DNA from: Cyanidioschyzon merolae
Taxonomy: Eukaryota
DNA length: 64,000 nucleotides
Assembly: GCA_000091205.1 (NCBI GenBank)
Contig: AP006498.2
Strand: one strand, 5' to 3'
Shown here: positions 1-57,661 of the stretch, one piece after another
Numbering within the stretch: position 1 is the first letter of the stretch
Layout of the letters: every line of letters begins with the position of its first letter
The notes under the pieces: generated by a model
Databases searched by the model: none
What the model was told of the DNA's origin: nothing
The model's input: only the letters and a program-made list of their open reading frames with translations
Position numbers and translations under genes: made by a program

Positions 1-1330
1 ACAGCCGCCAACAGGGCAATGCGACTCGTTGTTGTTGTTGGATGCTCAGTGCAGAGCAGAGCGACCAACCCGCTGACACTCGGACTTGAACTCCAAATAC
101 CCTCAATAGAAGCGATAGCAGCAGGCTGCCGGGCACGCATACGGGCCAAAAGGGTCCACCAAGCGCACCCGGTTCAGTCGGATTTTCATGCAGACCCCAA
201 CGCACCGCAAGAACACTTGGATGAAATCGACGCAGATTGGGCTGAAGCGCCTCTTAGACGAAAGCACGCTCCCTAATCGTTCCCCAGAAATGTAGCAGGC
301 TCCCGTCGCCTCAAGCGAACCGTCCAAACAACAATATGGGAACGTAGACACGGAACAAGTCGTGCCAGTAACGCCGGCTTGACTCTCTACCGGAACTACA
401 ACCTAGCATACACATGCAAGTACTGGTGGGAGGCGCTGGAGTTCCCGGGACTTGCTCGAGGTACCCAGTGGCTCGCGAAAATCCACGTTGGTGGCTTCTG
501 GCGACCATCACCGGCTCTAAGCCGTATAGGAACACTGGAATCGCACTGTCCCTGCTATCGAGACGAGACCCCTCGAGACGCTGACATATTTAGGCTTACA
601 GTGCCCGCGCTGGAAGCAGGAGCGCAGCGAGCTCCTTGGCGGACAGCAGCAGCTGGACATCACCGTGATAGCAAAAGGCCGGACACTCACTTTGAGTGCA
701 GCACTGGCAACTGATGGTCCGCTAACGGAGCCTCAGCGCTCATTAGTGGCGAACAAACTCACATGCTACCTTCTAGGCGGAAGGTCCAGCGAATCGGATG
801 CGCACACGGGCCCAGTGCGCTTTCTGCGCCTACCCACTGTGGTGAGCGTCAAGCACAAACCCACATTGCCAACCGACAACAACGCATTCCATGCATGATC
901 ACGAAGGAGAGAGGCGGCTCCCAGGATATATCCTAACAGTCAAGTTTCTCCAGCGTGTCGTGCAGCGAAGACAAGCCTGCATCCCCAGACTGTACGAGCA
1001 CAAACTGACGACGAGACCCGATTCTACGTCGGGTGAACCACACCTCGAGCCGATGCCCTCTGGGGTATAGAAAAGCAGTTCTAGCTCGATGAACTATCTG
1101 CTCCAGCATTTAAGGTGCAAAGGCGGATACGGAACGGCAGGTACGAGGCACACCCGATAGGACTTATGAAACGACCAGAATATCCGAGAAGAAGTATAGG
1201 TAATGGAACTTGGAAGTAGGCTGTTTGATGGATAATTCACCGCACATTGGAAAACACAAAAAAGTAAGAAAAGAAAAATGCGCATAGTCGGAGAACGCTG
1301 GCCAAAGGAAACGTTTTGTTAATGAAAAAA

Positions 1331-3832
1331 ATGCCGCCGTTGAAGGAAAACGTGATCTTGATATCTAGCATGTAGCTCTAATGTAAAAGTTGTATTTTCG
1401 TTAACTTCATAGCCAAGTATAGTTTTCAGTTCATTTGAGTTTCAAACCTCAAACATGTGTATTCAATTGTTTTGTCGCAGTATATAACAGAAGCGTTCCA
1501 GGAGCTTTCTTTTTCAAAAAAAAAACTAAAAAAGGAAAGTTATGAAAAAGCAAGTCGACGATCCTGGAGGCCGAGGGTCGCCGGCTGCCAGAAAAAAAAC
1601 AAAAAACAGTGCCAAGTCCAGAAGAAAAGGAAAAGAAGAAGGACCAAAGGGGGAAGGGGGGAGACTCTACGTCGAAGGATGCAAGAAAGACGAATGTACG
1701 ACGAGATGGTGGTGAAAACCTTTCTTCATGGCCATATCAAGGATCCCTACAGGGAAAAGTTGCAAGACGCTATCAGAAACCGTGTCGACTCGTACTCCAA
1801 GAGTATTGTCAAGGCGTCGTCAGGACTGATGCATTTGGTACGGGAGATGTATCGCGACGTGACGCACATGGAAACGGTGGAGATTCCGGACGAGTTTTTC
1901 GATAAGAAGTTTATTCGTCAGCTGATGCTTGGTACAGAGGAAGCGCGGAGGGAAAATGTATGAGTGCATGCCCTCCACGAAAAACATCCCTTTTACAGCT
2001 TCAACGGTACTCGATACAAGGGTGACCGGGATATTTACAGCTATGGGGCGATGAAGTACCTCACGAATCTGAAGAATCCTTTGACAGTGAACCTCGAACG
2101 TTTCATGATACGCGCCGTGTTTGCACTCGATCCCGGGCATCTCTCCCAAAGGGATATGGGCGATTACCAATGGCATCACGAACAATCGCCGGCGTGTAGA
2201 TGGGATCGAATTTGTCGACAAGAAGGCGTCAAAAGAGATCACGAATGAAGCTTCTGTTATCCGTGCGGCTATACAAGTGCACCGTGCAGTTTTGGGGCTG
2301 GCGAATCCGACAGACAAGATATCAGAGTTGAAAAAAGATAAGGAAAGATACGATCGTCTCGTCCTACGGTATTTTGTGTTTTTGGACCGAGAGCTCGATC
2401 GCAAAGCGGAGATGAAGCTGAGCGAGGAAAAAAATGAAGAATGGGAGAGACGGAAGGCGTTCCTAATGGGCGAGCGCTTCAACGTGGTTCCGTTGGGCAA
2501 CATCAAGTCACATTTTGTGACTATCGACTCCGGCGTCCTTTACGGCATCATGACTGAGACCAGTCCCGAGTTCGATGTAAGGAGCACAGAGATCACCGCC
2601 GAAACCCGCGAGACGTACTGGAAGAATATCTTCAATTTCAAAGGGCTCAAAGTCAGCAAGAAAAAGGAATTCACTGGGTTGATCGAAAGCGATGGAGTAG
2701 CCATGTGTGTACACTATCTGCGGTTGTTGAAAGATCGTCCAGTTCTGCCCTCGGCTTCGCGCTCGGCGAAACATGAAGAAAACAAACAAGCGGATCCTGC
2801 GACGCAGAAAGTGCAGGAAAACGACTTTGTCGTTGGCGCGGACCCCGGAAACACAAATATCATATCCATCGCTGTATCCAAGCTTGCGGACGATGGTTCT
2901 GACGGTAACTTGCGTCAGAAACACATGCGTCTTCTGAGGTTCTCGAGCGCAAGAGACTAAAGAGAATCCGGAATAATGAATGTGCGGAAGAAAATTGAGA
3001 CATGGAATGCAGGAATAAAGGACCACTTGGAAGCTATGAGCGAGGTGACGAGCCGAGGAGCGGGCTTTCAAGCTTTTCTGAAATTCATGAAAGTTCGCGT
3101 TGCTCATTGGGAGGCGCTGTGGGAGGAGTATACAAAGCCTCGGTGGGCTCGTCTGCGTATGAATCTATACTGTGGGAAGCAGCGGGCGTTCGCGAACTTT
3201 TTCAATCAGTTGAGCGCCCTGAAGGTGGATGTGAGTCAGAGGCTCGTCGTAGCATACGGAGCAGGGCGCTGGAAGACCCAAAAAGGGTGTACACCAGCTC
3301 CAACGACGAGAGCGCACAAGGAGTGTGCACGGCGTTTCGTAACGATACCTGTAGATGAGTTTCGAACATCGTATACACACCACGAGCTGGATTGTACACT
3401 TCAGAGGGTCGAGATGGAAAAGTGCCAGAGGAGCCCTGAAGATATAATAAAGTATGGACCGCTGACGGAGGAGCAAATGGAAAGGAGGGCAAAAGTTCGG
3501 CGACTACTTGCATTAGTAAGTACAACCAATCATGGCAAGAAACGTATGGAATTCGTGAATCGTGACTTTGATGCCGCCATCAATATCAGGAAATGTGCGG
3601 TACTGGAGACGAGAGCTCCAGAGTGGACAAGAGAGAACTTTAATGGACAACCTCTCAAAGTCGAACTATATAAGAAAAAATTGAAACTAGTAGTAGGTGG
3701 ACGTTCCAAACAAACTAGGAGGCGTCTGCACGTCAGTTGGAGACGATTTGTCTAAGGCGCGTTTGCCGCCACTACGGTACACTGCTGGCAGCAACGTTTT
3801 TCATTTGAAAAACGTTTGGCGGCGAGCTGCTC
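1331..3832 (+). mobile_element. Fanzor/TnpB-like (OMEGA-family RuvC nuclease) transposable element, copy A. Boundaries are approximate. The LE is set where homology to copies B-D begins (atgccgccgttgaagg, ~1331). The RE is set where the diverged 3' tail stops matching the other copies (~3832).
   Basis: About 2.5 kb is shared, at an estimated >85-90% nucleotide identity by eye (not computed), with three other segments in the window (17050-19504, 22425-24935, 49575-52062). It encodes a protein with TnpB/Fanzor hallmarks (see the pseudogene entry). Confidence 0.7.
1541..3755 (+). pseudogene. Fanzor-like RNA-guided endonuclease gene, copy A, disrupted. There is a probable frameshift in the A/T homopolymer-rich 5' part (~1560-1620), an in-frame TGA at 1961-1963 where other copies have CGA (Arg), and a TAA at 2958-2960 where copies B and D have TAT (Tyr). 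A putative 52-nt intron lies at 2100-2151.
   Basis: The protein fragments follow in order: MKKQVDDPGG..., then a basic NLS-like run QKKRKRRRTKGG, then MQERRMYDEMVVKTFLHGHIKDPYREKL... A RuvC-I-like motif ([18 protein letters not shown]) lies in ORF 2121..2960. An H/C zinc-binding cluster (YTHHELDCTLQRVEMEKCQ) and a RuvC-III motif (EFVNRDFDAAINIRKCAVLE) lie in ORF 2976..3755; D..NAA.NI is the TnpB/Cas12/Fanzor signature. The assembled length of ~690 aa fits Fanzor1-size proteins. Confidence 0.65.
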
Positions 3833-3870
3833 ATTTCCCACGGGCAGACACCTAAAGCGGGTCATCTGGT

Positions 3871-5913
3871 ATGCTGATGCAGTCAGACACGCCTGTCTCG
3901 AAGAGAAGAGATGTCGAAGCTTGTGACACGTTGACAACGGCCGGTGAGGACGCGGACTCGAACGCGCTTCAAGTAGTTTTACAGGGGCGAGCTGCCGGCT
4001 ATACGTGGTCTGACCGTCGAACAGCGCTTGATCGCCTCTGCGAAAGTCTGAAAACGACGACAGCACTGGCGTGGCTGTCTAGGTTTCCCGAGCTGTTCGC
4101 GGTGGAGGGCGCTGGGCGTCTCGGTGTGGCCCTGTGCCAGCACGCAGAGGAACTGCGTCCGTCTATTGTGGCGAGTGCGTGTCGCCTTGTTCACCAGATA
4201 GCGGCATCCTTACAACAGTGCATAGAGACCGTTGACAGCGGCCGTCGTTGTCATGTTGAGGCATGGGCTCGCACGTTCCACGCTCGTGTGCACCAGGGCG
4301 TCTACAGCGCGGTGACAGCGCACGTCACGAGCGCGACTGCAGTCGCACACGCCGCGTTGGAGGCGCTGAATGAGCTGGCAGTGAAAGTGGATGAAGAGCG
4401 TTGCTCCGTCGAGCGCGATGAACACGAACAGCAACAGGTCCAACGAGCGGACGCTGGTGAAACGTCACCACAAGTAGAGGAGCTTCAGACGGACATGACA
4501 GGCGCTAGCTGCAGTCACGCTCGTGCGACCATGCTCTCGGGTGACAGGAAAAAAGCCACGAGTGAGGAAACGGATGCATCCGCAAAACTCAGCCCACAAC
4601 TCGAGCTTGAAGCTGATCTAGAGCATTGGGCAGCGCCGCTGGCAGCCAATGCTAGCAGCGTCCTCGACTATTCCTTGTCCGTACGCAAGCATATCTCACT
4701 CGTTTCAAGGAACGAGAGGAACGCTTCCCTGGATTGTCCCAGGACGGGTTCACCCGTAGGCTCGCACGAGAATGCTCTGTCTACCACAAGTGCGGCTTCT
4801 GCAGACAAAGAGAATACCGAGGCAGGCGGCACGCGAGACAACGGCAGCCGAACGGCGCTCGCCCTGCGCAGTGCACCACCAGCCGTGCACAGGCCTGAAA
4901 CGGCATCAAATGCGCCACTGAATAAGACCGAGGCCGACGCTGCGCTCGTTGAAAAGAACCGAGAACTGACTGCGATTCTACAACAGTATGAGGCGACTTT
5001 AGAAACGTTGATTCAGAGCGAAACCGAGTCGCAGGCTTGCAGTGTTCGCACCAAACTCCTTAACCTGGACACGGAGAACAATCAGTTGAAGGCTGATCTG
5101 CTCACATGTACGGAAGCTTTCGAACAGCTTCGTTCAAGGTATCGAGATTTGAAAGAAAAGCTTCAAGTCGCTCAGGAAAATGAGCGACGAGCGACTGCCA
5201 TCGCCCAGACAGCCTCCGAAAGAATGGACGAAATGGAGCGATACCTTCGGGAATTCAAGCACCATGCCGAACAGAAACTGACGCAGGCTTTTCAGCTGGT
5301 TAGCCAGAGCAAAAACGACGTGATGACCAGGGACGCCACCATTACGTCTTTGGAAAAGGCCCTTGAAGCCAAGCGTACGGAATGCGCAGAGAAAGACGCC
5401 GCTATCAGCGAAGCCATGCACATGTACCGTCGAGCGGAGAGCTCGCAAGAGCAACTGCAGGCGCGTATCGTAGCTCTTGAAAACGAGATGCAAGCGCTGC
5501 GCTCCAGGGCTCAAACTGCCGAATCCGAACTGGAGGTGTTGCGTTCGGAACTCGCAGTCAGTGGGCCCAGTAACCTGCTAGGTGATGCGAGTGCCCCGCT
5601 GGGACCCCAGCTGGAGGAACTCCGCTCCGCGCTGGCAGCTGCACGTTCCAGGGAAGAAACGCTCCAGCGCGAACTCAAAAGGCTCAATAATGAAAACCAG
5701 AGCCTCAAAGCGCGCACCTATGATCATCTGCAGACCATCGAGTCGCTCCGTGCTGAACTGCAGCGGCCAAAGCCAGTTCCAACCCCAGCCCTTGGCATAG
5801 ACGCTGCGGAGGTTGAGCGTTTGCGCGACGAGAACGAGGAGCTGCACCAGCTCTGTAACACCCTTCTGGAGAAACTAGAAGCGCTCGAAGCGAGAACTTC
5901 TGCAGCGCACTAG
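3871..5913 (+). CDS. coiled-coil protein (680 aa). The C-terminal half is heptad-rich and Q/E/L/R-rich; function unknown.
   Basis: A long ATG-initiated ORF. Its composition is typical of coiled coils (LEVLRSELAV, LQRELKRLNNENQSLKAR, LEKLEALEARTS). It starts ~40 bp after the Fanzor copy A tail. Confidence 0.5.
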   Translation: MLMQSDTPVSKRRDVEACDTLTTAGEDADSNALQVVLQGRAAGYTWSDRRTALDRLCESLKTTTALAWLSRFPELFAVEGAGRLGVALCQHAEELRPSIVASACRLVHQIAASLQQCIETVDSGRRCHVEAWARTFHARVHQGVYSAVTAHVTSATAVAHAALEALNELAVKVDEERCSVERDEHEQQQVQRADAGETSPQVEELQTDMTGASCSHARATMLSGDRKKATSEETDASAKLSPQLELEADLEHWAAPLAANASSVLDYSLSVRKHISLVSRNERNASLDCPRTGSPVGSHENALSTTSAASADKENTEAGGTRDNGSRTALALRSAPPAVHRPETASNAPLNKTEADAALVEKNRELTAILQQYEATLETLIQSETESQACSVRTKLLNLDTENNQLKADLLTCTEAFEQLRSRYRDLKEKLQVAQENERRATAIAQTASERMDEMERYLREFKHHAEQKLTQAFQLVSQSKNDVMTRDATITSLEKALEAKRTECAEKDAAISEAMHMYRRAESSQEQLQARIVALENEMQALRSRAQTAESELEVLRSELAVSGPSNLLGDASAPLGPQLEELRSALAAARSREETLQRELKRLNNENQSLKARTYDHLQTIESLRAELQRPKPVPTPALGIDAAEVERLRDENEELHQLCNTLLEKLEALEARTSAAH

Positions 5914-13568: not shown

Positions 13569-15627
13569 TGCACGAGGACATTGTGCCGTGGGGTGATACC
13601 TGGGGGAAACCGCGGGGCGACCCAAAAAATGGGCAGGTATAGACTCGCAATTCATACTGAGTGCACAGGGTCCAGAACCGCGCGAACAAGTGTGTCTCGG
13701 GGAAGCACGCTCGGTAGATGTACAGCGCCAAGCCATTCCACAGTTTTTGCCGAATAATCAGGAAGTTTCTCTGAATGTTTGCGTAGGTCGGCAGCCTTCA
13801 TGCGAGGTTGTGACTATCGCCGCTATGGAACGTGGACGTAAAGGCGGGATGCAGCACAACACAATGCTTATTCTCTGTATCGACACCGGTTTCGGACCAA
13901 AATGGAATGCTAGCAGCTCGCTCGGCTCCTTTTCTTTGATTTTCTCGAACTCGATTTCAGGTGTACAACCCCGGTAATCCAAGTACAGCAATAGAGACCT
14001 ATGTTTTCGAATTTAGAACTAGGATTCTCGGTCTTGTTTTCAGAGTGGCTCTTTCGATGCCTTGGGGCTGGAATTCGTCTCGCCATTAGCATCAATATCG
14101 TGCGCGACGCTTCCGACAGAGTGTTCGTCGCGGAACCGATACCATCATGCGATTCATATGTACGAGCTTGCACTCTTGTCAGTTCCGTAGGTGCGGCACG
14201 CTAAAATCATGCATTCGTCTGGTTCTCGATCGTTCTATTTCATGGCAACTCGTGGGCGCAGCAACCTCCGCGCCTGGATTGACGAGGAATCAAGTCGGCA
14301 TCGTCCTGTGACGACTGCTTCATCAGCTCATCCCAAGGTCCCATTGAAATTGTCACGTCAAAGAAGCGCTTCTTGCGGAGAGTGTACCACTGCTTTGCTC
14401 GAAGGTTGCGTAGTGGTATCGGATTCCATCGGCTCGGGCTCCAGCCATGGTTCTCCTGCCAGTACCTGTTTCATCACGGAAAACATCACGTTCCACGATC
14501 CCTTATCGATTGGAACTGTGCGCTTGCAGCAGACAGCGTACTCGCCCACAGGATCGTGCAGAAGAAGCACGATATCCCAGGGTACGGCAATGTGCGGAGA
14601 AAAGCAGGGCATTGACGGGAGTTTTCTGTGCGCATCGAGCGCATGCACAGAGCGATGGAGCGCGTCCTCTCGTGCTACAGGGCGGTGCCCGAGATGCAGT
14701 GGACAACATGGCAACTCCTGACAACAGCCAAGCGGTACCGCCGCGAAGGACGCACCGAGTCTGTGTACGAAGAAGATGAAAACGTCAAGAAAAATGTTGA
14801 TCAAAAATGTCCTCTGAGCACACAGTGCGTCAATATTGCCAAGATAATGTTTCGGGACCATAGGCTGTATAGATATTCAGCCACACACGGGCGCCCCTCA
14901 GTCTTTTTCGACCGGCCTCCTGCTATCGGTTTCATTTTCTCCCTGCACATTTCGAGTCTGAGAGGTTGTCCAACTAAGCTAGATCACTCGGCTCAGCTCC
15001 TGGGGTCTCGTCTTCTGCACCACACATCCTTTGATATTGATGGTGGCGTTGAAGTCTCGGTACGCGAGCCCCATGCGTTTCCTGCCTCTGGTTGAACTCA
15101 TCAACGCAGGGATTCCCCGAACGCGTGCACTCTTTGTCACTACAGTCTCGTCATCGCCTCGTCGGGCAAACACTTGCTCTCGCTTCTCTCATCTCTTCTT
15201 CTTCGTTCGATGGTCGACGAGCAGAGGGTTTTTCTGATTTTTGTCGAGCCCGGCGAAACCGGGCGATCCAGCATCCCCAGCTGCCATTTCCATACCTTTT
15301 CCTTGGGTTTTTTATTTCTTTGAATCAACGCACTTGGAGCACATCTGCTATAAACCGCGAGAAAGCATTTGATGAGACACTCCCGGGCGTGGAACACACC
15401 TGAGGGAAAAACTGAACGCATCGTACGGGGCTCTCATGAGTCATGGAGGCCGCATCGGATCGCGTCGCACGAGAGGCTAGGGCAGGGCGCATGTCCGCTT
15501 CTACCCATTAGATCCATAAATATACACCATGGTATAGTTTGGTCCAGGGGCAATCTTCTGCCACACCGGGTCTCCGCGCACGTCCGCTTCAGATTCATCG
15601 GTTTCCGCTGAGCGTTCCTGTCCCGCA

Positions 15628-17046
15628 ATGACACAGGAGTCGGTGGTCGAAGCGGAAGCCCGGCTCGAGGCCGGACTCGCCGTTTCCGACAAGGTAATGA
15701 ACTTCTCTCTCGGAAAGGCGACAGCTGTACCGTCGTCAAAACACGTCCATACGGCTGCGGTCTCCGCACAGACTGTCGTCGACGACGACGACGAGGACGC
15801 CGACGACGTCACTGCTACGTCCACGTCTGAAAAGGGACCAAAGAAGCCTCATAAAAGACGAGGAAAACGAGGTGGACGGCGAAAAGGTGCCAGTGAGAAC
15901 GGCGGAGGCGACAGCACTGTTGCTTCGTCGCCAGTACCACAGCCGCTTCCGAAGGCGACTTGTAGCACAGAACTCTGTGGCATCTCGCGGCTCTTTCCTG
16001 AGGGCGTCTACCCGGCTGGCGAGGTTCAGGACTATGTCGGAGACCAAGCTTATCGTACAACTCAAGCCGAAGTACGTGAACGGGAACGACTCTCGTTCGA
16101 TATGATTGGAAAAGCGCGAAAAGCAGCTGAGGTCCACCGGCGCGTGCGCACGTACATCCGGCCTCGAATTCAGCCCGGGATACGACTGGTTGATCTTTGT
16201 GAAGAGCTGGAAAACGCTACCCGGACACTCGTTGAGGAAGATGGCTTGGAAGCGGGTATAGCGTTTCCAACAGGTTGCTCGTTGAACCACGTGGCAGCGC
16301 ATTACACCCCGAACCGGGGCGACGACACCCGACTCCAGCACACAGACGTGATGAAACTGGACTTTGGCGTGCATGTGGACGGAATCATTATGGACTGTGC
16401 CTTTACCATTGCGTTTGACGAGCGCTACGAAAAGCTACTAGAAGCTGTGCGTGAAGCGACCAATGCGGGTATTCGAGCAGCAGGGATCGATGTGCGACTC
16501 AGCGAGATGGGTTCCATCATTCAAGAGGTCATGGAGAGCCACGAGATCGAGCTGGACGGCAAAGTGATGCCCATCCGCTCGATCCGTAACCTAAACGGAC
16601 ACAGTATTGACCGGTACCGCATCCACGCGGGTAAGACGGTGCCCATTGTGAAGAGCAGTGTGCCGGGGAAAATGGAGGAAGGCGAATTGTATGCCATTGA
16701 GACGTTTGGTTCTACTGGGCGCGCATACGTCACCGAGAGCGGAGAATGCTCCCATTACATGAAAGTATTCGATGCGTCGCACGTGCCGCTGAGGATGCCG
16801 CGTGCACGCCAGTTATTGAGTACGATCAACCGCCATTTTGGAACGCTGGCTTTCTGTCGTCGCTATCTGGATCGACTCGGTGAGGAGCGATACCTCATGG
16901 CACTGAAGCACTTGTGTGATGTGGGTATCGTGCAGCCGTATCCGCCATTGTGCGATGTGCCGGGTTCTTTGACAGCACAGTTCGAGCACACGATTCTGCT
17001 GCGGCCGACTGGTAAGGAAGTGCTAACTCGCGGCGACGACTTTTGA
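15628..17046 (+). CDS. methionine aminopeptidase 2 (MetAP2, peptidase M24A)
   Basis: An acidic and then Lys/Arg-rich N-terminal extension (DDDDEDADD...[16 protein letters not shown]) is typical of MetAP2. The pita-bread core motifs are [38 protein letters not shown] and ...[10 protein letters not shown]. It is a single 472-aa ORF from ATG to TGA. Confidence 0.85.
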
Positions 17047-17049
17047 TGC

Positions 17050-19504
17050 TGGCACCGAACACCGTTCGCAGTCGGACGATGCCGACCGTGTACAGTAGTG
17101 GCGGCAACCGCGCCCTAGACGAAACGTCTCTAACTGACGTGCAGACGCCGCCCTGCCGTTTTCGACCGGCCACCTACTACTGCTTCCACCTTCTTCTCAT
17201 ATAGTTCGACTTTGAGAGGTTGTCCAACAAAGTTTTCTCTTGTCTAGTCTGGAGGTCTCGTCTCCAGCACCGCACATCTCCTGATATTGATGGCGGCATT
17301 AAAGTCTCGGTTCACAAATTCCATACGTTTCTTTCCATCATTGTTCGTACTTACTAATGCGAGTAGTCCACGAACTTTCGCCATCCTTTCCATTTGCTCT
17401 TCCGTCAGCGGTCCATACTTTATTATATCTTCAGGGCTCCTCTGGCACTTGTCCATCTCCACTCTCTGAAGTGTACACCCCAGTTCATGGTGTGCATAGG
17501 ACGATCGGAACTCGTCTACAGGTATCGTAACGAAACGTCTTGCGCACTCCTTGTATACCCTCGTCGTTGGAGCTGGAGTAGTGCCTTTCTTGGGCGCCCA
17601 ACGCCCTGCCCCATACGCTACTACGAGCCTCTGACTTTCATCCTCCTTCAGGGCGCTCAACTGATTGAAAAAGTTCGCGAACGCCCGCTGCTTCCCGCAA
17701 TACAAATTCATTCGCAAACGAGCCCACCGGGGCTTGCTGTACTCTTCCCACAGCGCATCCCAATGGGCGATGCGAACTTCCATGAATGTCCGAAAAGCTC
17801 CAAAGTCCGCTCCTCGGCTAGTCACCTCGCTCAAAGCTTCTAGGTGCTCCTTCATTCCTGAATTCCAAGTCTCGATTTTCTTCCTCGCATTCCTCATTCC
17901 CGATTCTCGATAGTATCTCGCTCTGGAGAACCTCAAAGGACGCATGTCTTTCTGACGCAAGTTACCATCAATGCCATCTTCCGCAAGCTTGGATACAGCG
18001 ATGGATATGATATTTGTGTTTCCGGGGTCCGCACGAACGACAAAGTCGTTATCCTGCACTTCCTGTGTGGCAGGATCCGCCTTCTTCCCATCTTCATGCT
18101 TCGTCGAGGACGGAACTGGACGATCTGTCTTCAAGCGCCTTTAGTGTACACACATGGGTATTCCATCGGTTTCGTCTGAAAGTGAGCAACTTTTGCTTGC
18201 TCACTTTCAGACGTTTGTAATCGAAGATATTCTTCCATTACGTCTGGCGGGTTTCGCCGGAGAACTCTTCCCTGCGAAGATCGAACGCCGGACTGATCTC
18301 AGTCATGATGCCGTAAAGGACGCCGGAGTCGATAGTCACAAAATGTGACTTGATGTTGCCCAACGGAACCACGTTGAAGCGCTTGCCCATTAGGAACGCC
18401 TTCCGTCTCTCCCATTCCTCATTTTTTCCTCACTCAGCTTCATCTCCGCTTTGCGTTCGAGCTCTCGGTCCAAAAACACAAAATACCGTAGGACGAGACG
18501 ATCGTATCTTCCCTTATTTTTTTCAAATCTGATATCTTGTCTGTCGGATTCGCCAGCCCCAAAACTGCACGGTGCACTTGTATAGCCGCACGGATTACAG
18601 AAGCTTCATTCGTGATCTCTTTTGACGCCTTCTTGTCGACGAATTCGATCCCATCTACACGCCGGCGATTGTTCGTGATGCCATTGATAATCGCCCATAT
18701 CCCTTTGGGAGAGATGCCCGGGATAGAGCGCAAATACGGCTCTTATTATGAAACCTTCGAGGTTCACTGTCAAAGGATTCTTCAGATTCGTGAGGTACTT
18801 CATCGCCCCGTAGCTGTAAATATCCCGGTCACCCTTGTATCGAGTACCGCTGAAGCTGTAAAAGGGATGTTTTTCGTGGAGGGCATCCACTAGCACATTT
18901 TCCCTCCGCGCTTCCGCTGTGCCAAGCATCAGGTGTCGAATAAAGGTCTTGCCGAAAAACTCGTCCGGAATCTCCACCGTTTGCATGTGCGTCACGTCGC
19001 GATACATCTCCCGTACCAAATGCATCAGTCCTGACGACGCCTTGACAATACTCTTGGAGTACGAGTCGACGCGGTTTCTGATAGCGTCTCGCAACTTTTC
19101 CCTGTAGGGATCCTTGATATGGCCAAGAAGAAAGGTTTTCACAACCATCTCGTCGTACATTCGTCTTTCTTGCCGCCTTCGACGTAGAGCCTCCACCTTT
19201 CAGTCCTTCTTCTCTTCCTTTTCTTCTGGACTCGGCACAGTTTTTTGTTTTTTTTCTGGCAGCCGGCGACACTGGGCCTCCGGGATCGTCGACTTTTTTT
19301 ATAGCTTTCCTTTTTTTTTGGAAAAGAACACTCTTTGGACGCGTCTGTTCGATACTGCGAAAAAAAACTCGACTAGACTTGTTTGAGGGTTGAAACAAAA
19401 ACGAACTGAAAGACTATACTTGCCTATGAAGTTCACGAAAATACAACTTTTACACGAGAGCTAGACGCTAAGGATCACGATTACGTTTCCCTTCAACGGT
19501 GGCA
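17050..19504 (-). mobile_element. Fanzor/TnpB-like element, copy B, the most degenerate copy. Its RE tail abuts the MetAP2 stop codon, tail-to-tail. Homology to copies C and D continues ~30 bp beyond 19504.
   Basis: Nucleotide homology to copy A runs throughout. There is a ~130-bp internal deletion plus frameshifts between 18134 and 18440, relative to copies A, C and D. Confidence 0.65.
17244..19196 (-). pseudogene. Fanzor-like endonuclease gene, copy B, fragmented. N-terminal part is 18606..19196, the middle is frameshifted, and the C-terminal RuvC-I to RuvC-III part is 17244..18134.
   Basis: ORF 17244..18134 reads ...[19 protein letters not shown]...RMEFVNRDFNAAINIRRCAVLETRPPD. ORF 18606..19196 reads ...RRMYDEMVVKTFLLGHIKDPYREKL...GAMKYLTNLKNPLTVNLEG. 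Confidence 0.6.
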
Positions 19505-20032
19505 TACGCGTCGTGTCTCATGACTGCCCGATCCCCCAGATGCGCTCATCGAGCGCGATGCATGCGCTGCGCGAGACGCCTCACCGATCCATGAAGGACA
19601 CGTGTCCGACACCCCGTCTTGGCACATGCGTGTTCGCATCGCACTGCAGCCAAAATAACGTATCGTAGATCGGAAACGCACGTAGAATGAACTCTTGCTA
19701 TAGGTTCTGTCGCTGGCGCCGACGCTACTGCCCATCGCAGTACCGCCCTGACATACAAGGGGATGCAGGGGCCTGGCACGATACCCCTCGACGCTTCTAT
19801 CAAAAGCGTAGCGTTCTCTGCGGCTTACCGTTGTGTGGTTAAGGTATGCATCACTCTTCTCAATAGGATTTTCGTTAGTTTTATTGATCATAAACAAACA
19901 AGGTACGGTAGGATTCCTGAACACGGATACAGGTTTATTTCCTCTGCTTGTTATGTATGCTGCACGGTCGCTGGAACAGTGTCCGATTGTATGGGTGCTG
20001 CGTATCGAGGCTTGTCGCGCGCTCCAAGCACG

Positions 20033-22414: not shown

Positions 22415-22424
22415 GACACTCTGG

Positions 22425-24935
22425 AAACCTCGTTCGCCACGGTAGCACCGCCACAGCCGTTCTAAGTCGGACGACGCCGACGGTATCCCGTAGTGGCGGC
22501 AAACGCGCCTTAGACAAATCGTCTCCAACTGACGTGCAGACGCGTCCCCGTCTTTTTCGACCGGCCACCCACTACTGCTTCTAACTTTTTCTTATATAGT
22601 TCGACTTTGAGAGGTTGTCCAACAAAGTTCTCTCTTGTCCACTCTGGAGGTCTCGTCTCCAGCACTGCACATCTCCTGATATTGATGGCGGCATCAAAGT
22701 CACGATTCACGAATTCCATACGTTTCTTGCCATCACTGGGTGTACTTACTAATGCAAGTAGTCCACGAACTTTTGCCCTCCTTTCCATTTGCTCCTCCGT
22801 AAGCGGTCCATACTTTATTATATCTTCAGGGCTCCTCTGGCACTTTTCCATCTCCACTCTCTGAAGTGTACAACCCAGCTCGTGGTGTGTATACGATGTT
22901 CGAAACTCATCTACAGGTATCGTAACGAAACGCCGTGCACACTCCTTGTGCGCTCTCGTCGTTGGAGCTGGTGTACACCCTTTTTGGGTCTTCCAGCGCC
23001 CTGCTCCGTATGCTACGACGAGCCTCTGACTTTCATCCTCCTTCAGGGCGTTCAACTGATTGAAAAAGTTCGCGAACGCCCGCTGTTTCCCACAGTATAG
23101 ATTCATACGCAGACGAGCCCACCGAGGCTTTGTATACTCCTCCCACAGCGCCTCCCAATGAGCAACGCGAACTTTCATGAATTTCAGAAAAGCTTGAAAG
23201 CCCGCTCCTCGGCTCGTCACCTCGCTCATAGCTTCCAAGTGGTCCTTTATTCCTGCATTCCATGTCTCAATTTTCTTCCGCACATTCATTATTCCGGATT
23301 CTCTTTAGTCTCTTGCGCTCGAGAACCTCAGAAGACGCATGTGTTTCTGACGCAAGTTACCGTCAGTACCATCGTCCGCAAGCTTGGATACAGCGATGGA
23401 TATGATATTTGTGTTTCCGGGGTCCGCGCGAACGACAAAGTCGTTTTCCTGCATTTTCTGCGTCGCAGGATCCGCTTGTTTGTTTCCTTCATGTTTCGCC
23501 GAGCGCGAAGCCGAGGGCGGAACTGGACGATCTTTCAACAACCGCAGATAGTGTACACACATGGCTACTCCATCGCTTTCGATCAACCCAGTGAATTCGT
23601 TTTTCTTGCTGACTTTGAGCCCTTTGAAATTGAAGATATTCTTCCAGTACGTCTCGCGGGTTTCGGCGGTGATCTCTGTGCTCCTTACATCGAACTCGGG
23701 ACTGGTCTCAGTCATGATGCCGTAAAGGACGCCGGAGTCGATAGTCACAAAATGTGACTTGATGTTGCCCAACGGAACCACGTTGAAGCGCTCGCCCATT
23801 AGGAACGCCTTCCGTCTCTCCCATTCTTCATTTTTTTCCTCACTCAGCTTCATCTCCGCTTTGCGATCGAGCTCTCGGTCCAAAAACACAAAATACCGTA
23901 GGACGAGACGATCGTATCTTTCCTTATCTTTTTTCAACTCTGATATCTTTTCTGTCGGATTCGCCAGCCCCGAAACTGCACGGTGCTCTTGCATAGCCGC
24001 ACGGATTACAGAAGCTGCATTCGTGATCTCTTTTGACGCCTTCTTGTCGACAAATTCGATCCCATCTACACGCCGGCGATTGTTCGTGATGCCGTTGGTA
24101 ATCGCCCATATCCCTTTGGGAGAGATGCCCGGGATAGAGTGCAAATGCGGCGCGTATCATGAAACGTTCGAGGTTCGTTGTCAAACGATTCTCCAGATTC
24201 GTGAGTCACTTCATCGCCCCATAGTCGTAAATATCCCGGTCATCCCTGTACTGGGTACCCTCGAAGCGGAATTCCGCGAAGTTTTCGTGGAGGGCATGCA
24301 CCCGCTCATTTTCCATCCGCGCTTCCTCTGTACCAAGCATCAGCTGACGAATAAACTTCTTATCGAAAAACTCGTCCGGAATCTCCACCGTTTGCATGTG
24401 CGTCACGTCGCGATACATCTCCCGTACCAAATGCATCAGTCCTGACGACGCCTTGACAATACTCTTGGAGTACGAGTCGACGCGGTTTCTGATAGCGTCT
24501 CGCAACTTTTCCCTGTAGGGATCCTTGATATGGCCATGAAGAAAGGTTTTCACCACCATCTCGTCGTACATTCGTCTTTCTTGCATCCTTCGACGTAGAG
24601 TCTCCCCCCCTTCCCCTTTGGTCCTTCTTCTTTTCCTTTTCTTCTGGACTTGGCACTGTTTTTTGTTTTTTCTGGCAGCCGGCGACACTGGGCCTCCAGG
24701 ATCGTGGACTTGCTTTTTCATCACTTTCCTTTTTTTGTTTGTTTTTGAAAAACAACGCTCTTTGATCCCTTCTGTTATACACAGCAAAAAATCAATCGAG
24801 CATTTTTGCTTGAGGTTTGAAACACAAATGAACTGAAAACTGTACTTTGCTACGACCTCAACGCAAACACAACTTTTACAGCTGAACAAGACGCTTCTGA
24901 TCGCGATTGCGTCTCCCTTCAACGGCGACGGGCGC
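22425..24935 (-). mobile_element. Fanzor/TnpB-like element, copy C. The RE tail ends ~10 bp upstream of the M13 peptidase ATG. It is most similar to copy A at the RE and to copy D overall.
   Basis: Nucleotide homology to copies A, B and D. The tail sequence cgtagtggcggcaaacgcgccttagac is the reverse complement of copy A's gtctaaggcgcgtttgccgccactacg. Confidence 0.7.
22510..24922 (-). pseudogene. Fanzor-like endonuclease gene, copy C. An in-frame TGA follows ...YDYGAMK and is shared with copy D. A TAA between the ...FSSARD and [11 protein letters not shown] parts is shared with copy A.
   Basis: The ORFs are 24206..24922 (N-terminus with the MKKQVHDPGG...KKRKRRRTKG NLS-like region), 23305..24144 (RuvC-I region) and 22510..23289 (Zn cluster plus RuvC-III VNRDFDAAINIRRCAVL). 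Confidence 0.6.
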
Positions 24936-25640
24936 TTCGTGTCTAATGCCTGCCAGACAAGGATGTGCGCGTATCGGGCGCACTCTATAGAACAAAGAAC
25001 AGATACTGACCATTAAATCGCCACGAGATAACGATTTCTTTCCCCTCTGCGATAAACGTTGAGACGGGGAAAACTGTCGGTACTTTCGAAAGTTTACCTT
25101 CTAGACGCAAGGTCCCGCGGATTGCACGAGTCTCCCAGGCTCGTGCTTCACGCTCCGCCACTGGCAGGTGCTTTCGTGACATCTGAGCAACTCGTCCGTA
25201 ACGCACTCCACTCTGGGACTTGGAACGGGTAGCCGGCGTCTGGGCGTTGCCCATGATGCAGTGGGCTCCTGGTATATCGCGTTGCGCTGCCGCAGGCACT
25301 AGCTCAGTCTGCGCAGCTTGCAGACTCCTAGAACGACTATGAGCCACGACTCCGTTTCAGGTGAAGCGTTCCTCGGTCCGACGCCCTCGGAGGTATGGCA
25401 AAGCCGTTCAGTCTCCGTGATGCATCGGCATCAGCGATATAACCGCAATTGCGGGTGCTCAAAGCAGGTAATCGGCGCTCGATAGAGCATAAGAATCGAC
25501 CATTACATCCGAAATGATTTATGGGTCATCTAACTTGAGGGTAAGTGCATCATGATGGATGCTTTCCCGAAACCCAACATCCATCCATCCATCCATTCTG
25601 CAATCTGGGATCCATGGTCCACGAAAACGTTTTGTCACTG
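24936..25640. repeat. ~700-bp segment flanking the LE side of Fanzor copy C. It is duplicated almost identically next to copy D (52063-52765) but absent next to copy A. It contains a 120-aa minus-strand ORF (24985..25347) and a (CATC)n run.
   Basis: Direct comparison of 24936-25640 with 52063-52765 shows colinear near-identity ending at ...ccatggtccacgaaaacgttttgt. The ORF MAHSRSRSLQAAQ...GKEIVISWRFNGQYLFFVL is conserved in both; no recognisable domain. Confidence 0.45.
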
Positions 25641-27087: not shown

Positions 27088-28616
27088 GAGCGTAGGACCT
27101 GCATGACTCCCGCACGCGCAAGGACTCGGCTTTCTACACGACGTTGCGGCGTTGAAGCGTGACGAACGTTCGTTAGGAACGCGTGCCCCCTGGTGCAGCG
27201 ACTTTTGCTTGATTGTACTTCGGGAAACTTGGTCGCTTCGAAACCAGTTGGCGTTGCCGCTTCCTCCTTACCGAGTGTCAAGCTTTGCATCGTATGTCAG
27301 TGTTGTCGACGAAAGGTTCATGCACCACGTACACATCATGCCGAACCTTACTCCTTAAAGAACAATAGGAAACTGCCGATGCGCGATGTCCATGCAACGG
27401 TTGCCGCTACGCCAGTCCCAGCGAGATGGCCACGCTTTCGCACTAGTTCTTGTGAATTGCATGACAATAAAGGCTTTGCGCACGGCATTTTCTGGAATGT
27501 CGCGCAGGCTGCAATACCTGGGCAATGAAGACGCCCAGCGCGATTCGCGTGCTGCACTCACGCCAGTCGCCTGTGTCCGTAGAAAGCTGTCGATGGGACG
27601 CGCTTTCGCAGTCGGTGGAGGGATACCCGAGTCAGCTCCGTGGAGCCATATCCTTTTCAAGGCATATCCCTCGTGCTTCTCTTTGTCAAGTTTCCACCGG
27701 TCCTGTTCGCAGTTCCGTCGAGCGTCCTCGCGTAGAGCGTCGAGGAAAACGTGCACTCTCCGCGAAATGCTTTTCGAGAAACCCAACGCTCACTGAACCT
27801 GCTGAACGAATCATACGAATATGTATGGAAAGCGTGTGACGGTGAGTCTGCGTGGCCCTAGACCCAGGGCAGTCAGTCATCGTATCCAGGTGTTTTCTGT
27901 GCTGTGGAGACAATGAATTGAACCAGGGAAATCCCGGATGCCTGATATGCGTACCATCACTAGAGCAAAAAACATTCTATGACGATAAAGCGTTTGTATA
28001 CACACAGACCTCCAGATGTTTCCCGGCCTTTTTTTGACCGAACCCTCTGATATCCGTTTGGGGTTTTCCCTGCAGACTTCGAGCTTGGGAAGCCACCCAG
28101 CGAATTTAGAGGGTGTCAGGTCCTCAGTCCTCGTCTTTAGCACCACAGATCGTGTGATATTGACTGCACCGTGAAAGTCTGGGGTTCACGAACTCTATGA
28201 GTCTATTGCATCTAAATGAACTCACGTTTGCAGGGATTCCCCTATCTTTTGCACTCTATGACACTAGAGTCTCGTCATTGCCACGTTTGGCAAACATCTG
28301 TTCTCGTCGCTCGTCGGTCTCCCGTTTCCCACTTCTTCTTCTGCTTCGTCAATAGCGCTATATCCCTCTGTTCTCGACGAGACGAGGATTTTTATCGTTT
28401 CTTTTTCAAGCACCCGGCAATGGTAGTCATCCAAGATGTCTGACTTGCATGTCTATACCTTTCCCTTTGATTTTTTATTTCTTCAAATGAATGCACTTTG
28501 AATACATCGGCTATGAGCCGTGGAAAAGCATATGGTGACATGCATCTGGCGTGGAACGCAATTGAGTTGAAATACGATAATCACCCGTGCGTGCATGCAG
28601 CGCAGATACGAAAAAG

Positions 28617-48975: not shown

Positions 48976-49629
48976 TCAGTGGTACGCTTCTCTTGAGCTG
49001 ACGCTCCCTGCACCCACGTTTGGTGCCTCGAAGGCGGCATTCGGCGTCTCGGCGCTGGCCTCATGTTTCTGTTCGTTCATGATACCGAGCACCGTGCCCA
49101 TGGTCGCAACGCTCTGCTGCAGCGCGTTCAAAGTCGCTCGAAGTTCGGCGAGTTGCTCTTGCTGCTCGAGCCGTTGGCTGCTGATGGACTCCAGTTCGGC
49201 ACGTCGCTCGCAGATCTCCAACTCCAACTCGGAACAATTTGGTAGTCGCTCGATCTCGACACACAAAGCCCGCAGCTCTCGCTCGCTAGCTAACTGCGAC
49301 TCAGCAACGCTGAGCGCCTTCTTTTCCTCCGCGTATTGTTCCCGAAGTTGCTTCACTTGCGCCTCCAGTGTAGGCAGTGCTAGGCAACGAAGGTTGTCCT
49401 CGTCAGTGGCGAGCGCCTGCGCGGCTCTGGCGAAATGCTCGGCCGACTGCTCGAGCGCAGCCAGCGATCGAGCCAAAGCGTCCGGGGAGGTTTCCACTCC
49501 GCGTCCTGCTTGCGTGAGTACCAGCACTTGACCTGCTGACTGTAGGAACTCGTCGTAGCGCTGTTCAAGTCGTGCAGCGATTGCTGTTTCACAGTCACCG
49601 CTGTCGCTAACGGTGTACATTAGTGGCAT
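48976..49629 (-). CDS. Small coiled-coil protein (~217 aa from ATG 49627-49629). Its first ~20 codons lie inside the diverged 3' tail of Fanzor copy D, so the true start is uncertain. Low confidence.
   Basis: Heptad-rich sequence (LEAQVKQLREQYAEEKKALSVAESQLASERELRALCVEIERL). The N-terminal codons MPLMYTVSDSGDCETAIAA are nucleotide-homologous to the tails of copies B and C. Confidence 0.3.
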   Translation of the reverse strand: MPLMYTVSDSGDCETAIAARLEQRYDEFLQSAGQVLVLTQAGRGVETSPDALARSLAALEQSAEHFARAAQALATDEDNLRCLALPTLEAQVKQLREQYAEEKKALSVAESQLASERELRALCVEIERLPNCSELELEICERRAELESISSQRLEQQEQLAELRATLNALQQSVATMGTVLGIMNEQKHEASAETPNAAFEAPNVGAGSVSSREAYH

Positions 49630-52062
49630 GTGGCCCGCCCTAGACGAGAGGTCTCCAACTGACGTGCAGACGCGTCCCCGTCTTTTTCGACCGGCCACCC
49701 ACTACTGCTTCTAACTTTTTCTTATATAGTTCGACTTTAAGAGGTTGTCAAACAAAGTTCTCTCTTGTCAACTCTGGAGCTCTCGTCTCCAGCACCGCAC
49801 ATCTCCTGATATTGATGGCGGCATCGAAGTCACGATTCACGAATTCCATACGTTTCTTGCCATCGTTGGTTGTACTGACCAATGCGAGTAGTCCACGAAC
49901 TTTCGCCATCCTTTCCATTTGCTCCTCCGTAAGCGGTCCATACTTTATTATATCTTCAGGGCTCCTCTGGCACTTTTCCATCTCCACTCTCTGAAGTGTA
50001 CAACCCAGCTCGTGGTGTGTATACGATGTTCGAAACTCATCTACAGGTATCGTAACGAAACGCCGTGCACACTCCTTGTGCGCTCTCGTCGTTGGAGCTG
50101 GTGTACACCCTTTTTGGGTCTTCCAGCGCCCTGCTCCGTATGCTACGACGAGCCTCTGACTTTCATCCTCCTTCAGGGCGTTCAACTGATTGAAAAAGTT
50201 CGCGAACGCCCGCTGTTTCCCACAGTATAGATTCATACGCAGACGAGCCCACCGAGGCTTTGTATACTCCTCCCACAGCGCCTCCCAATGAGCAACGCGA
50301 ACTTTCATGAATTTCAGAAAAGCTTGAAAGTCCGCTCCTCGGCTCGTCACCTCGCTCATAGCTTCCAAGTGGTCCTTTATTCCTGCATTCCATGTCTTAA
50401 TTTTCTTCCTCGCATTCATGATTCCCGATTCTCGATAGTCTCTTGCTGTCGAGAACCTCAGAAGACGCATGTGTTTCTGACGCAAGTTACCGTCAGTACC
50501 GTCGTCCGCAAGCTTGGATACAGCGATGGATATGATATTTGTGTTTCCGGGGTCCGCGCCAACGACAAAGTCGTTTTCCTGCACTTTCTGCGTCGCAGCA
50601 TCCGCTTGTTTGTTTTCTTCATGTTTCGCCGAGCGCGAAGCCGAGGGCGGAACTGGACGATCTTTCCTCAACCGCAGATAGTGTACACACATGGGTATTC
50701 CATCGCTTTCAATCAACCCAGTGAATTCCTTTTTCTTGCTGACTTTGAGCCCTTTGAAATTGAAGATATTCTTCCAGTACGTCTCGCGGGTTTCGGCGGT
50801 GATCTCTGTGCTCCTTACATCGAACTCGGGACTGGTCTCAGTCATGATGCCGTAAAGGACGCCGGAGTCGATAGTCACAAAATGTGACTTGATGTTGCCC
50901 AACGGAACCACGTTGAAGCGCTCGCCCATTAGGAACGCCTTCCGTCTCTCCCATTCTTCATTTTTTTCCTCACTCAGCTTCATCTCCGCTTTGCGATCGA
51001 GCTCTCGGTCCAAAAACACAAAATACCGTAGGACGAGACGATCGTATCTTTCCTTATCTTTTTTCAACTCTGATATCTTGTCTGTCGGATTCGCCAGCCC
51101 CGAAACTGCACGGTGCTCTTGCATAACCGCACGGATTACAGAAGCTGCATTCGTGATCTCTTTTGACGCCTTCTTGTCGACGAATCCGATCCCATCTACA
51201 CGCCGGCGATTGTTCGTGATGCCATTGATAATCGCCCATATCCCTTTGGGAGAGATGCCCGGGATAGAGTGCAAATGCGGCGCGTATCATGAAACGTTCG
51301 AGGTTCGTTGTCAAACGATTCTCCAGATTCGTGAGTCACTTCATCGCCCCATAGTCGTAAATATCCCGGTCATCCCTGTACTGGGTACCCTCGAAGCGGA
51401 ATTCCGCGAAGTTTTCGTGGAGGGCATGCACCCGCTCATTTTCCATCCGCGCATCCTTTGTACCAAGCATCAGCTGACGAATAAACTTCTTATCGAAAAA
51501 CTCGTCCGGAATCTCGACCGTTTCCATGTGCGTCACGTCGCGATACATCTCCCGTACCAAATGCATCAGTCCTGACGACGCCTTTACAATACTCTTGGAG
51601 TACGAGTCGACACGGTTTCTGATAGCGTCTCGCAACTTTTCCCTGTAGGGATCCTTGATATGCTTAAGGACACCGGCTTTCACCACCATCTCGTCGTACA
51701 TTCGTCTTTCTTGCATCGTTCGACGTAGAGCCTCCCCCCCCCCTTTGGTCCTTCTTCTTTTCCTTTTCTTCTGGACTCGTCACTGTTTTTTGTTTTTTCT
51801 GGCAGCCGGCGACACTGGGCCTCCAGGATCGTGGACTTGCTTTTTCATCACTTTCCTTTTCTTGTTTGTTTTTGAAAAACAACGCTCTTTGATCCCTTCT
51901 GTTATACACAGCAAAAAATCAATCGAGCATTTTTCCTTGAGGTTTGAAACACAAATGAACTGAAAACTGTACTTTGCTACGACCTCAACGCAAACACAAC
52001 TTTTACAGCTGAACAAGACGCTTCTGATCGCGATTGCGTCTCCCTTCAACGGCGACGGGCGC
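49575..52062 (-). mobile_element. Fanzor/TnpB-like element, copy D, the least damaged copy. The flanking ~700-bp segment 52063-52765 is shared with copy C.
   Basis: Near-identity to copy C across the ORFs. The RE tail overlaps the putative start of the coiled-coil ORF. Confidence 0.7.
49748..51274 (-). CDS. Fanzor-like endonuclease, copy D: an uninterrupted 508-aa reading frame from the post-intron region through RuvC-I, the Zn cluster and RuvC-III. The upstream N-terminal exon (51336..51716) ends in an in-frame TGA after ...YDYGAMK. The full gene therefore has one nonsense codon unless it is read through.
   Basis: The frame reads ...[18 protein letters not shown]...FSTARDYRESGIMNARKKIKTWNAG... 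(Tyr where copies A and C have a stop) ...YTHHELGCTLQRVEMEKCQ...RMEFVNRDFDAAINIRRCAVLETRAPE. Confidence 0.6.
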   Translation of the reverse strand: MHSIPGISPKGIWAIINGITNNRRRVDGIGFVDKKASKEITNAASVIRAVMQEHRAVSGLANPTDKISELKKDKERYDRLVLRYFVFLDRELDRKAEMKLSEEKNEEWERRKAFLMGERFNVVPLGNIKSHFVTIDSGVLYGIMTETSPEFDVRSTEITAETRETYWKNIFNFKGLKVSKKKEFTGLIESDGIPMCVHYLRLRKDRPVPPSASRSAKHEENKQADAATQKVQENDFVVGADPGNTNIISIAVSKLADDGTDGNLRQKHMRLLRFSTARDYRESGIMNARKKIKTWNAGIKDHLEAMSEVTSRGADFQAFLKFMKVRVAHWEALWEEYTKPRWARLRMNLYCGKQRAFANFFNQLNALKEDESQRLVVAYGAGRWKTQKGCTPAPTTRAHKECARRFVTIPVDEFRTSYTHHELGCTLQRVEMEKCQRSPEDIIKYGPLTEEQMERMAKVRGLLALVSTTNDGKKRMEFVNRDFDAAINIRRCAVLETRAPELTRENFV

Positions 52063-52765: not shown

Positions 52766-53050
52766 TATAAAAAATTCTCATCAGCAGCAGCGACGGCGCT
52801 AGGCCCCAGCCGTCATCCTGGCGCCCGCTGAAGGCTCGCTGCGAAGCCTCGGCTGCATCGCAAGCCCAGGTGTCGTTCCGTTGTCAACCGAAAACACTTG
52901 TAGATCGAGTTGGTGCTGAACAACGTGGGCTCTGTGACTCCTCCCTAAACTCTTGCTCGCTTCTGATTGGGAAAAGGTTTGCAGCCTCAAACAGTGTGTG
53001 GAGAACACTAGAACTTAACCAACACCACACCGCCCACGACACAGTTACCC

Positions 53051-57453: not shown

Positions 57454-57661
57454 GACGCGCAGAACAACGCGGACTTGGAAGCGAAGTCGCTGATGCCCAC
57501 TGCACTACCCGTACGAGTCCAGGGGTCTAAGCTGTGACTGTCCGGCGTCCAGCACGAGCAGCGAAAATCGCGAAAGCGTTTTGGCTTGACGCTGGGCGCT
57601 GTGTCCAGTGTGACTGGATCCGCCAACGTTGACGACGCGTGCGCCGCACGTGGCATTCCTG

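Follow-up and report, generated by a model that had tools for sequence, protein, structure and literature searches.

The omegaRNA of the eukaryotic nuclease SpuFz1 comprises a 75-nucleotide (nt) scaffold, which lies between the element's stop codon and its right end, and a variable extension of 14 to 15 nt (Saito et al. 2023, PMC10432273). Complexes of Fanzor1 (Fz1) proteins have a conserved stem-loop, SL1, and, between it and the guide, one to three further stem-loops, which vary and are described as probably not constrained (PMC11423790). In Cyanidioschyzon merolae, a red alga, the element CMe-1A is present in ~150 copies of ~3 kb, which carry Fanzor1 only and have no terminal inverted repeats (TIRs) and undetermined target-site duplications; the 5' 635 bp are another element, TE-N2_CMe, and some copies keep coding capacity (Bao and Jurka 2013, PMC3627910). 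That description predates the discovery of omegaRNA and does not describe a 3' tail. Here, we report a computational analysis of a 64,000-nt stretch of C. merolae DNA (GenBank assembly GCA_000091205.1, contig AP006498.2; the whole stretch is referred to below as the window) that contains four copies of a Fanzor1-like element, each followed by a structured tail. On balance, we favor reading this tail as the right-end non-coding region of the element, which would encode an omegaRNA scaffold or at least its guide-proximal part. To our knowledge, only a handful of elements have an experimentally defined Fanzor omegaRNA, and our literature search found no description of one for the red-algal Fanzor1 family.

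The four copies belong to one element of ~2.5 to 3.2 kb, and each codes for a protein of ~740 amino acids (aa); copy A (~1335-3830) lies on the + strand, and copies B (~17050-19505), C (22445-25635), and D (49571-52766) lie on the - strand. By resemblance to the published description, the window family fits an element of the CMe-1A kind: copies C and D are ~3.2 kb long, TIRs are missing, there are many diverged copies, and a 5' module of ~0.65 to 0.7 kb is separable from the rest. One host protein is 99% identical to metagenomic proteins, 62 to 65% to its closest red-algal matches in NCBI (65% for Cyanidiococcus yangmingshanensis), and 57% to the protein of Cyanidium caldarium, which places the host in the Cyanidiophyceae.

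Immediately after each stop codon is a non-coding tail of ~65 to 80 nt, made up of a hairpin (S1), a core with the family consensus ACTACTGTACAC, and a region forming a longer hairpin (S2). In copy A (+ strand), S1 (GGCGCGTTTGCCGCC, 3756-3770) has a GGCG/CGCC stem that is nearly invariant in the family and an inner part that varies; within the tail, conservation is highest in the core (ACTACGGTACAC, 3771-3782; entropy, 0.45 to 0.63 bits), and the S2 region (3783-3827) holds a perfect palindrome, AACGTTTTTCA-TT-TGAAAAACGTT, at 3793-3816. A preliminary description of the window had noticed this palindrome and placed it at 3794-3817. The same description quoted the sequences past the stop codons correctly in all four copies (including gtcggcatcgtccgac in copy B and gtcggcgtcgtccgac in copy C), and the diverged but alignable tail that it reported is present, at a length of ~55 to 70 nt across the window copies instead of 85 to 105 nt.

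The minimum-energy fold of copy A also has a basal helix, in which 3761-3771 pairs with 3817-3827. A covariance model (R1), built from 34 tails of the family, matched the whole tail of copy A at 3753-3837 (+ strand; 58.5 bits; E, 1e-12), with the final ~10 to 15 nt being flank columns. On the - strand, the tail of copy B was placed at 17047-17117 (69.9 bits; stop TAG, 17117-17115; S1, 17114-17100; core, 17099-17088; S2, 17087-17051, with a GGTCGG/CCGACT hairpin) and that of copy C at 22432-22512 (62.4 bits; stop TAA, 22512-22510; S1, 22509-22495; core, 22494-22483; S2, 22482-22445). The tail of copy D is the most diverged (49559-49642, - strand; 36.4 bits; stop TAG, 49642-49640; S1, 49639-49625; core, 49624-49613; S2, 49612-49571), and its S2 segment is identical to the S2 of a metagenomic locus, L002.

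A metagenome scan yielded 479 relatives, of which 80 loci were kept; no relatives of the family were found in viral contigs. Searched over 537 kb, R1 gave 80 matches, all of them on the strand of the open reading frame (ORF) and 79 of them beginning exactly at a stop codon, and with filters off it returned only the four tails from the window. Because the matches are tied to the stop codon and occur nowhere else in the window, the tail belongs to the element itself and is not an older repeat into which copies inserted. The one match apart from a full ORF (L047:653-737) consists of ~37 nt of the ORF end and a complete S1-core-S2 unit; either truncation of a copy at its 5' end or a gene-less "ghost" unit could account for it. 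At this locus (L047:618-737), the upstream 610 nt are unique among the kept loci.

Past the stop codon, the family consensus reads GGCG-N7-CGCC (S1), the core, S2, and a G/T-rich sequence, and in family alignments conservation stops ~65 to 85 nt past the stop; the flank beyond the tail is unrelated between copies. At least two versions of the S2 sequence occur, CGTCGTTCGA-CTT-TCGAACGGCG and CAACGTTTTTC-TTTT-GAAAGACGTTTG. Sub-families were seen to have 8 to 10 nt in common just past GGCGTT(T)G before the sequences become unrelated, with GTTGGTGTG or TTYCAGGRG past the tail in two sets (L053, L025, L040, L064, and L055 versus L017, L015, L034, and L070); these nucleotides could belong to the element, reflect a target preference, or mark a similarity of guide seeds.

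The S2 hairpin is specific to one strand, and a test that needs no alignment showed co-variation of its arms. Across 44 unique S2 regions, compared with dinucleotide shuffles and with their reverse complements, the mean minimum free energy was -18.0 kcal/mol (reverse complement, -11.9 kcal/mol), the + strand was the more stable in 41 of the 44, and the mean z score was -2.4, with z below -2 in 52%. When arms were swapped between copies, cognate pairs averaged -18.0 kcal/mol and non-cognate pairs -15.6 kcal/mol, a mean cost of 2.4 kcal/mol (permutation p, 2e-4) that climbed from 0 to 5 kcal/mol with the divergence of the copies; arm matching was also found with the inner arms alone (p, 2e-4). 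A near-identical S2 3' arm, GGCGTTGTTGG, pairs with differing 5' arms in different copies, and, judged by eye, where 3 nt are inserted into the 5' arm, the 3' arm has extra bases as well. At consensus pairs, cells with G-U numbered 245 and cells with A-C numbered 84. With RNA energy parameters the mean z was -2.3, and with DNA parameters it was -1.6. Signals outside S2 were marginal, both for the matching of the S1 arms (p, 0.03) and for the core against the distal end, i.e., the basal stem (p, 0.04).

Several results weigh against a guide-RNA scaffold. The entropy of the tail (0.45 to 1.1 bits/site) is close to that of the third positions of ORF codons (0.4 to 0.9 bits), a synonymous-like rate. 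Pairwise identity among the four copies does fall, from 80 to 100% in the body to 50 to 76% at 3761-3810 and to a background of 18 to 44% beyond 3811; given the match with third codon positions, the contrast between a diverged tail and a conserved body in the preliminary description is largely an effect of setting non-coding against coding sequence. Hairpin potential had been claimed for every copy. The fold of copy A (-35.1 kcal/mol; z, -4.5; reverse complement z, -1.9) is above chance, but the tails of B (z, -0.6), C (z, -1.0), and D (z, -0.5), three of the four in the window, fold no better singly than shuffles, and the signal is clear only across the family. The proposed structure paired 68.9% of cells on a MAFFT alignment (69.3% in shuffles) and 70.1% on the model-fitted alignment (69.5% in shuffles), so that compensatory changes, which the preliminary description had proposed to look for on a structural alignment, stayed at the level of shuffles. 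On the model-fitted alignment there were 40 double changes, against 31.9 expected from shuffles, and 26 of 500 shuffles scored as high; sliding the partners cut pairing to 37 to 54%, in a control that favors any consensus-derived structure. Column-wise covariation is at shuffle level because a fixed consensus such as R1 fails to register the two S2 versions together, and with hairpin variants in different registers there is no single conserved secondary structure.

The remaining points on that side concern S1, the surroundings, and the state of the copies. The outer four pairs of S1 are 76 to 98% paired and barely vary, and S1 is uninformative because it hardly varies. Copies A and C show a striking long-range helix that joins the S1 3' arm (GCCGCC) to distal GGCGGC, but S1 and the distal end had no cognate preference over the family as a whole (p, 0.59), and the helix was dropped on that value. 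A search of window positions 3300-3950 against Rfam gave no match at E <= 1. All four window ORFs are frameshifted, with a nonsense codon as well in A and C, so any function here would need protein supplied in trans. Finally, autonomous relatives (described below) have a terminal stretch of ~60 to 80 nt, including the TIR, that separates the structured region from the TA site; the window family is without it, and for that reason its scaffold/guide junction would differ from theirs. Taken as a whole, the preliminary observation was partly confirmed, being real but overstated.

The guide-scaffold reading, which we still favor with these points in view, draws on SpuFz1 as its closest parallel. 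SpuFz1 is likewise a single-ORF Fanzor1, and the window tail has the position, strand, and size of its scaffold, two stem-loops, and a poorly constrained guide-proximal stem; the plasticity of S2 fits the variable stem-loops described for Fz1 (PMC11423790). SpuFz1 differs in having clear inverted repeats, with its omegaRNA spanning the 3' one, whereas the window family has no recognizable TIR; RNA expression, protein binding, a target-adjacent motif (TAM), and cleavage have been demonstrated for SpuFz1. No similarity between the two was detectable in RNA or protein sequence.

By analogy with SpuFz1 and TnpB, transcription of the ORF-bearing strand would run past the stop codon and into the flank. 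The ~65 to 80 nt past the stop would then fold into the S1 stem-loop, a single-stranded conserved core (ACUACUGUACAC), and the longer, evolutionarily plastic S2 stem-loop; Fanzor protein from intact copies would bind this scaffold, and the next 14 to 20 nt of flank would act as the guide for DNA cleavage beside a TAM. Transcription, protein binding, guide function, and the TAM are what we only infer. Candidate guide 40-mers had no meaningful second-site match in 0.6 Mb of sequence, and the second genomic match past the right end that the preliminary description had envisaged was absent from that set; a single 23-nt match, from L045 to L025 (1012-1034), resembles an inverted remnant of a tail.

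The preliminary description had also noted that such guide RNAs overlap the ORF at its 3' end. Over the final 150 nt of the ORF, synonymous sites showed no excess conservation, and hence there was no sign of an overlapping RNA; a hairpin within the ORF end (CGTCT...AGACG or AGAC...GTCT) was rejected, as its variants are uncompensated by eye. This sets the window family apart from the omegaRNA (right-end RNA, reRNA) of IS200/IS605 TnpB, whose scaffold overlaps the ORF 3' end extensively; TnpA, too, is missing from the window family. The likeness to TnpB lies in a right-end RNA on the nuclease strand, end hairpins that may have a dual DNA and RNA role, and a guide taken from the flank.

A further step, which we regard as very unlikely, is that the family owes its spread and homogenization to RNA-guided cleavage of its own and to subsequent homologous recombination, as homing or ectopic gene conversion, with the tail as scaffold and the flank as guide. 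This idea was prompted by the loss of transposase and TIRs in a family that nonetheless has hundreds of copies with a nuclease under purifying selection, and it could explain the mosaic identity along the copies, the sharp break between C and D at the ORF/tail junction, and the sub-family-specific 8 to 10 nt past the tail.

If the scaffold reading is true, the tail is a compact (~70 nt) natural Fz1 guide scaffold, and the family, an abundant transposase-less Fanzor1 lineage in genetically tractable algae with very small genomes, would be a system in which to ask what use a Fanzor is to an element that lacks a transposase. In annotation, the ~70 nt past each such ORF belong to the element and are not host intergenic DNA or a 5' untranslated region (UTR).

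Among the alternatives, an end structure acting at the DNA level is unlikely: here the hairpin would be a single-strand recognition or processing signal for a mobilizing enzyme, like the subterminal hairpins of IS200/IS605 elements or Helitron 3' ends, or a degenerate transposase-binding site left from the Tc1/mariner ancestor, and no RNA would be involved. The hairpin is indeed situated at the right end of the element, TnpB element ends serve both roles, and the strand asymmetry would also suit a single-stranded DNA intermediate. The mean z with DNA parameters, although still -1.6, is the weaker signal, however, and ~21% of the predicted pairs are G-U (G-T in DNA). By eye, the junction of the flank with the 5' module makes a similar CGTTTT...AAAACG hairpin, and the reverse complement of the right end, ACAAACGTC, is similar to the 5' terminus, ACAAAACGTTT; R1, in contrast, did not detect any copy resembling the tail at left ends. 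Beside window-family copies, where no systematic Rep/Hel or Y1 search was made, neither a Y1/HUH or RepHel gene nor any other transposase gene was noticed, and the DDE_3 transposase of the relatives binds double-stranded TIRs, which the window family has lost. Nor do the tails have a Helitron-like CTRR terminus, since they end in G/T-rich sequence, e.g., GCGTTGTTGGTG.

It is similarly improbable that the tail is a decaying relic, an ancestral structured 3' region that drifts neutrally and whose hairpins are kept by descent and gene conversion. The near-synonymous rate of the tail, the column-wise covariation without significance, the weak hairpins of many copies, the pseudogene state of the window ORFs, and the mosaic identity along copies would all be at home in such a history. 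Neutral drift, however, predicts no advantage for cognate arms, and one of 2.4 kcal/mol (p, 2e-4) was observed; extra 3'-arm bases match the 3 nt inserted into the 5' arm, and G-U outnumbers A-C mismatches by 3:1. Purifying selection is visible on the Fanzor ORF, where third-position entropy exceeds that of first and second positions, and it follows, together with the published account (PMC3627910), that the family was active while it diversified.

Quite unlikely, in our judgment, is an mRNA 3' UTR element, whose hairpins would serve the Fanzor mRNA in its 3'-end formation, stability, or translation or would insulate the downstream host gene (15 to 35 nt away in copies A and C). A sense-strand tail directly past the stop with RNA-favored structure is what such an element would look like, and same-strand host ORFs start near the tail both in copy A (ATG, 3871) and in copy C (about 22417). 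In a compact genome, tight spacing to host genes is nevertheless to be expected, the gene that copy B faces is a convergent one, and nothing specific ties hairpins of this type to 3'-end formation in these algae. In the relatives, moreover, the structured 3' region lies well upstream of the element end, with the TIR after it, which is the arrangement described for Fanzor omegaRNAs. The alternative raised by the preliminary description itself, that the copies had inserted into members of one repeat family, fails on the start of 79 of 80 model matches at the stop codon.

The coding region of copy A (1543-3755, + strand; stop TAA, 3753-3755) was delimited from its ORFs and the four-copy alignment, and its product, by predicted fold, is a Fanzor1, i.e., a eukaryotic TnpB-like nuclease. 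The assignment was made by fold because window ORFs had no match in Pfam (a relative, P0001, reached PF07282 only at E 0.23, below the cut-off) and sequence and profile searches of the PDB with family proteins found nothing. An AlphaFold (AF2) model of the full-length relative P0095, through which the fold match was obtained, had a mean predicted local distance difference test (pLDDT) score of 60, with low confidence in the RuvC half. Searched against the PDB with Foldseek, it matched only PpFz, GtFz, and SpuFz (E, 1.7e-8 to 1.4e-7; full-length alignments), with the next match at E 0.7; TM-scores against these Fanzor1 structures were only 0.27 to 0.33. RuvC motifs (DPGNTN, DEFRTS, and NRDFNAAINI) occur in the window copies and relatives and are nearly invariant in the protein alignment; the catalytic Asp (DPG), Glu (DEFRTS), and Asp (NRDxNAAxNI) were assigned by eye from the sequence. 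The proposal in the preliminary description of a TnpB/Fanzor-type nuclease thus held, the Fanzor1 structures being the only significant fold matches and the RuvC motifs being present. The only precomputed domain of a family protein was DUF8286, and a distant relative, P0233, has a precomputed PF07282 match.

The four window copies are pseudogenes. A +1 frameshift common to A through D (near 2128, CCCGGGC, in copy A) disrupts each ORF, with an extra TAA in A (in frame, 2958-2960) and C and an early end in D. The relative P0001 reads through the frameshift site (window positions 2120-2135 and the equivalents in B, C, and D), and intact relatives of ~700 aa were found outside the window. As all four carry the one CCCGGGC frameshift, their source, by descent or by conversion, was a single defective copy.

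Full-length relatives (40 to 45% aa identity) lie directly downstream of a DDE_3 (Tc1/mariner-type) transposase gene on the same strand. These Tc1/mariner-type Fanzor1 elements (L082-L094), for which the SfAV Fanzor1 reRNA (PMC10711439) is the named comparison, resemble the window family in their homologous proteins, in a structured non-coding region past the stop codon, and in common sequence blocks; a transposase gene, a GAGTA|TA end, a CCATCTATATA box, and a TIR are their own features, none of which the window family has. [quoted passage not shown] In eight of these 3' regions, RNAalifold predicted one closing stem (CGGCG/CGCCG, CCAGUG/CACUGG, and GCGGUG/CACCGU) with compensatory change in 4 of 6 pairs. 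Blocks common to the relatives and the window family, found by eye, are GGCGG, ACTGTA, and GTACAC...GTTGGTGTGTAC, the last as GGTACAC...GTTGGTGTGTACC in L093. From its sequence organization, the window family looks like a truncated, non-autonomous derivative of such elements. Nine of the loci (L082-L085, L088, and L090-L093) are two-gene elements with the CCATCTATATA box and right ends reading GGTGTTCCA...GAGTA|TA, and the 3.5- to 5-kb contigs of the relatives, from saline and brine metagenomes, look like whole elements assembled from repeats.

Along the window copies, identity is mosaic. Compared with B, C, and D, window positions 1200-3800 show blocks of 100% identity alternating with blocks of 60 to 75%, and the closest partner switches along the element, which indicates that copies often recombine or undergo ectopic gene conversion with one another. 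In a self-BLAST, C (22506-25635) and D (49636-52766) were 97% identical over 3.13 kb; the homology breaks off 4 nt past the stop codon, the tails being only ~60% identical, and this abrupt break reflects mosaic recombination among copies. The body of copy C (22513-25635, - strand) includes a ~700-nt 5' module that starts with ACAAAACGTTTTCGTGGACCATGG at 25635, the 5' limit of its homology with copy D, whose body (49643-52766, - strand) is organized in the same way.

A module of ~0.65 to 0.7 kb starting ACAAAACGTTTACATTGACCATGGATCCCAGATTGCGG precedes the Fanzor ORF in many copies and is probably a TE-N2_CMe-like unit of Bao and Jurka. It lies at 24927-25635 in C, at 52054-52766 in D, and, inverted, at about 640-1323 in A; it was also seen at L011, L017, L019, L031, L045, L049, L050, L059, and L078, and it is inverted in L042, L050, and L061 as well as in A. 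The ~15 to 20 nt before the module (T-rich, then ..ATG) are similar between copies and, together with ACAAAACG, form an S2-like hairpin. As a left end forming a TIR with the tail, GCCGTTGAAGG (~1336 in copy A) was considered and rejected, most copies being homologous further upstream, in at least three modular versions.

Host reading frames lie close to the tails. In copy B, the end of a convergent, methionine aminopeptidase (MetAP)-like host ORF (15628-17046; region 17037-17046) limits the tail to at most 72 nt, stop codon included; the tail and the host stop codon are directly adjacent. The tail of copy A ends 35 nt before the same-strand host ATG at 3871 (3837-3871), and that of copy C ends ~15 nt before a same-strand host ATG near 22417 (22417-22432), the probable start of an M13 peptidase ORF. 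In copy D, ATGs within the tail (49559-49640) open a coiled-coil-like ORF of more than 200 aa. Host 5' or 3' UTR signals may therefore lie inside elements.

Degenerate old fragments at 14892-15404 and 28030-28566 have 65 to 73% identity to the 3' third of the Fanzor ORF; R1 found no recognizable tail at either, and by blastx only the fragment near 14.9 kb gave a match, to residues 165 to 250 of ORF3. At L040 and L035, ~2 to 3 kb downstream of the Fanzor tail, the raw sequence print shows a long ORF-rich stretch resembling a reverse-transcriptase retroelement (non-long terminal repeat-like). Elsewhere in the window, 57568-58225 is a tandem array of ~14 copies of a 47-nt unit, 81 to 100% identical at its center.

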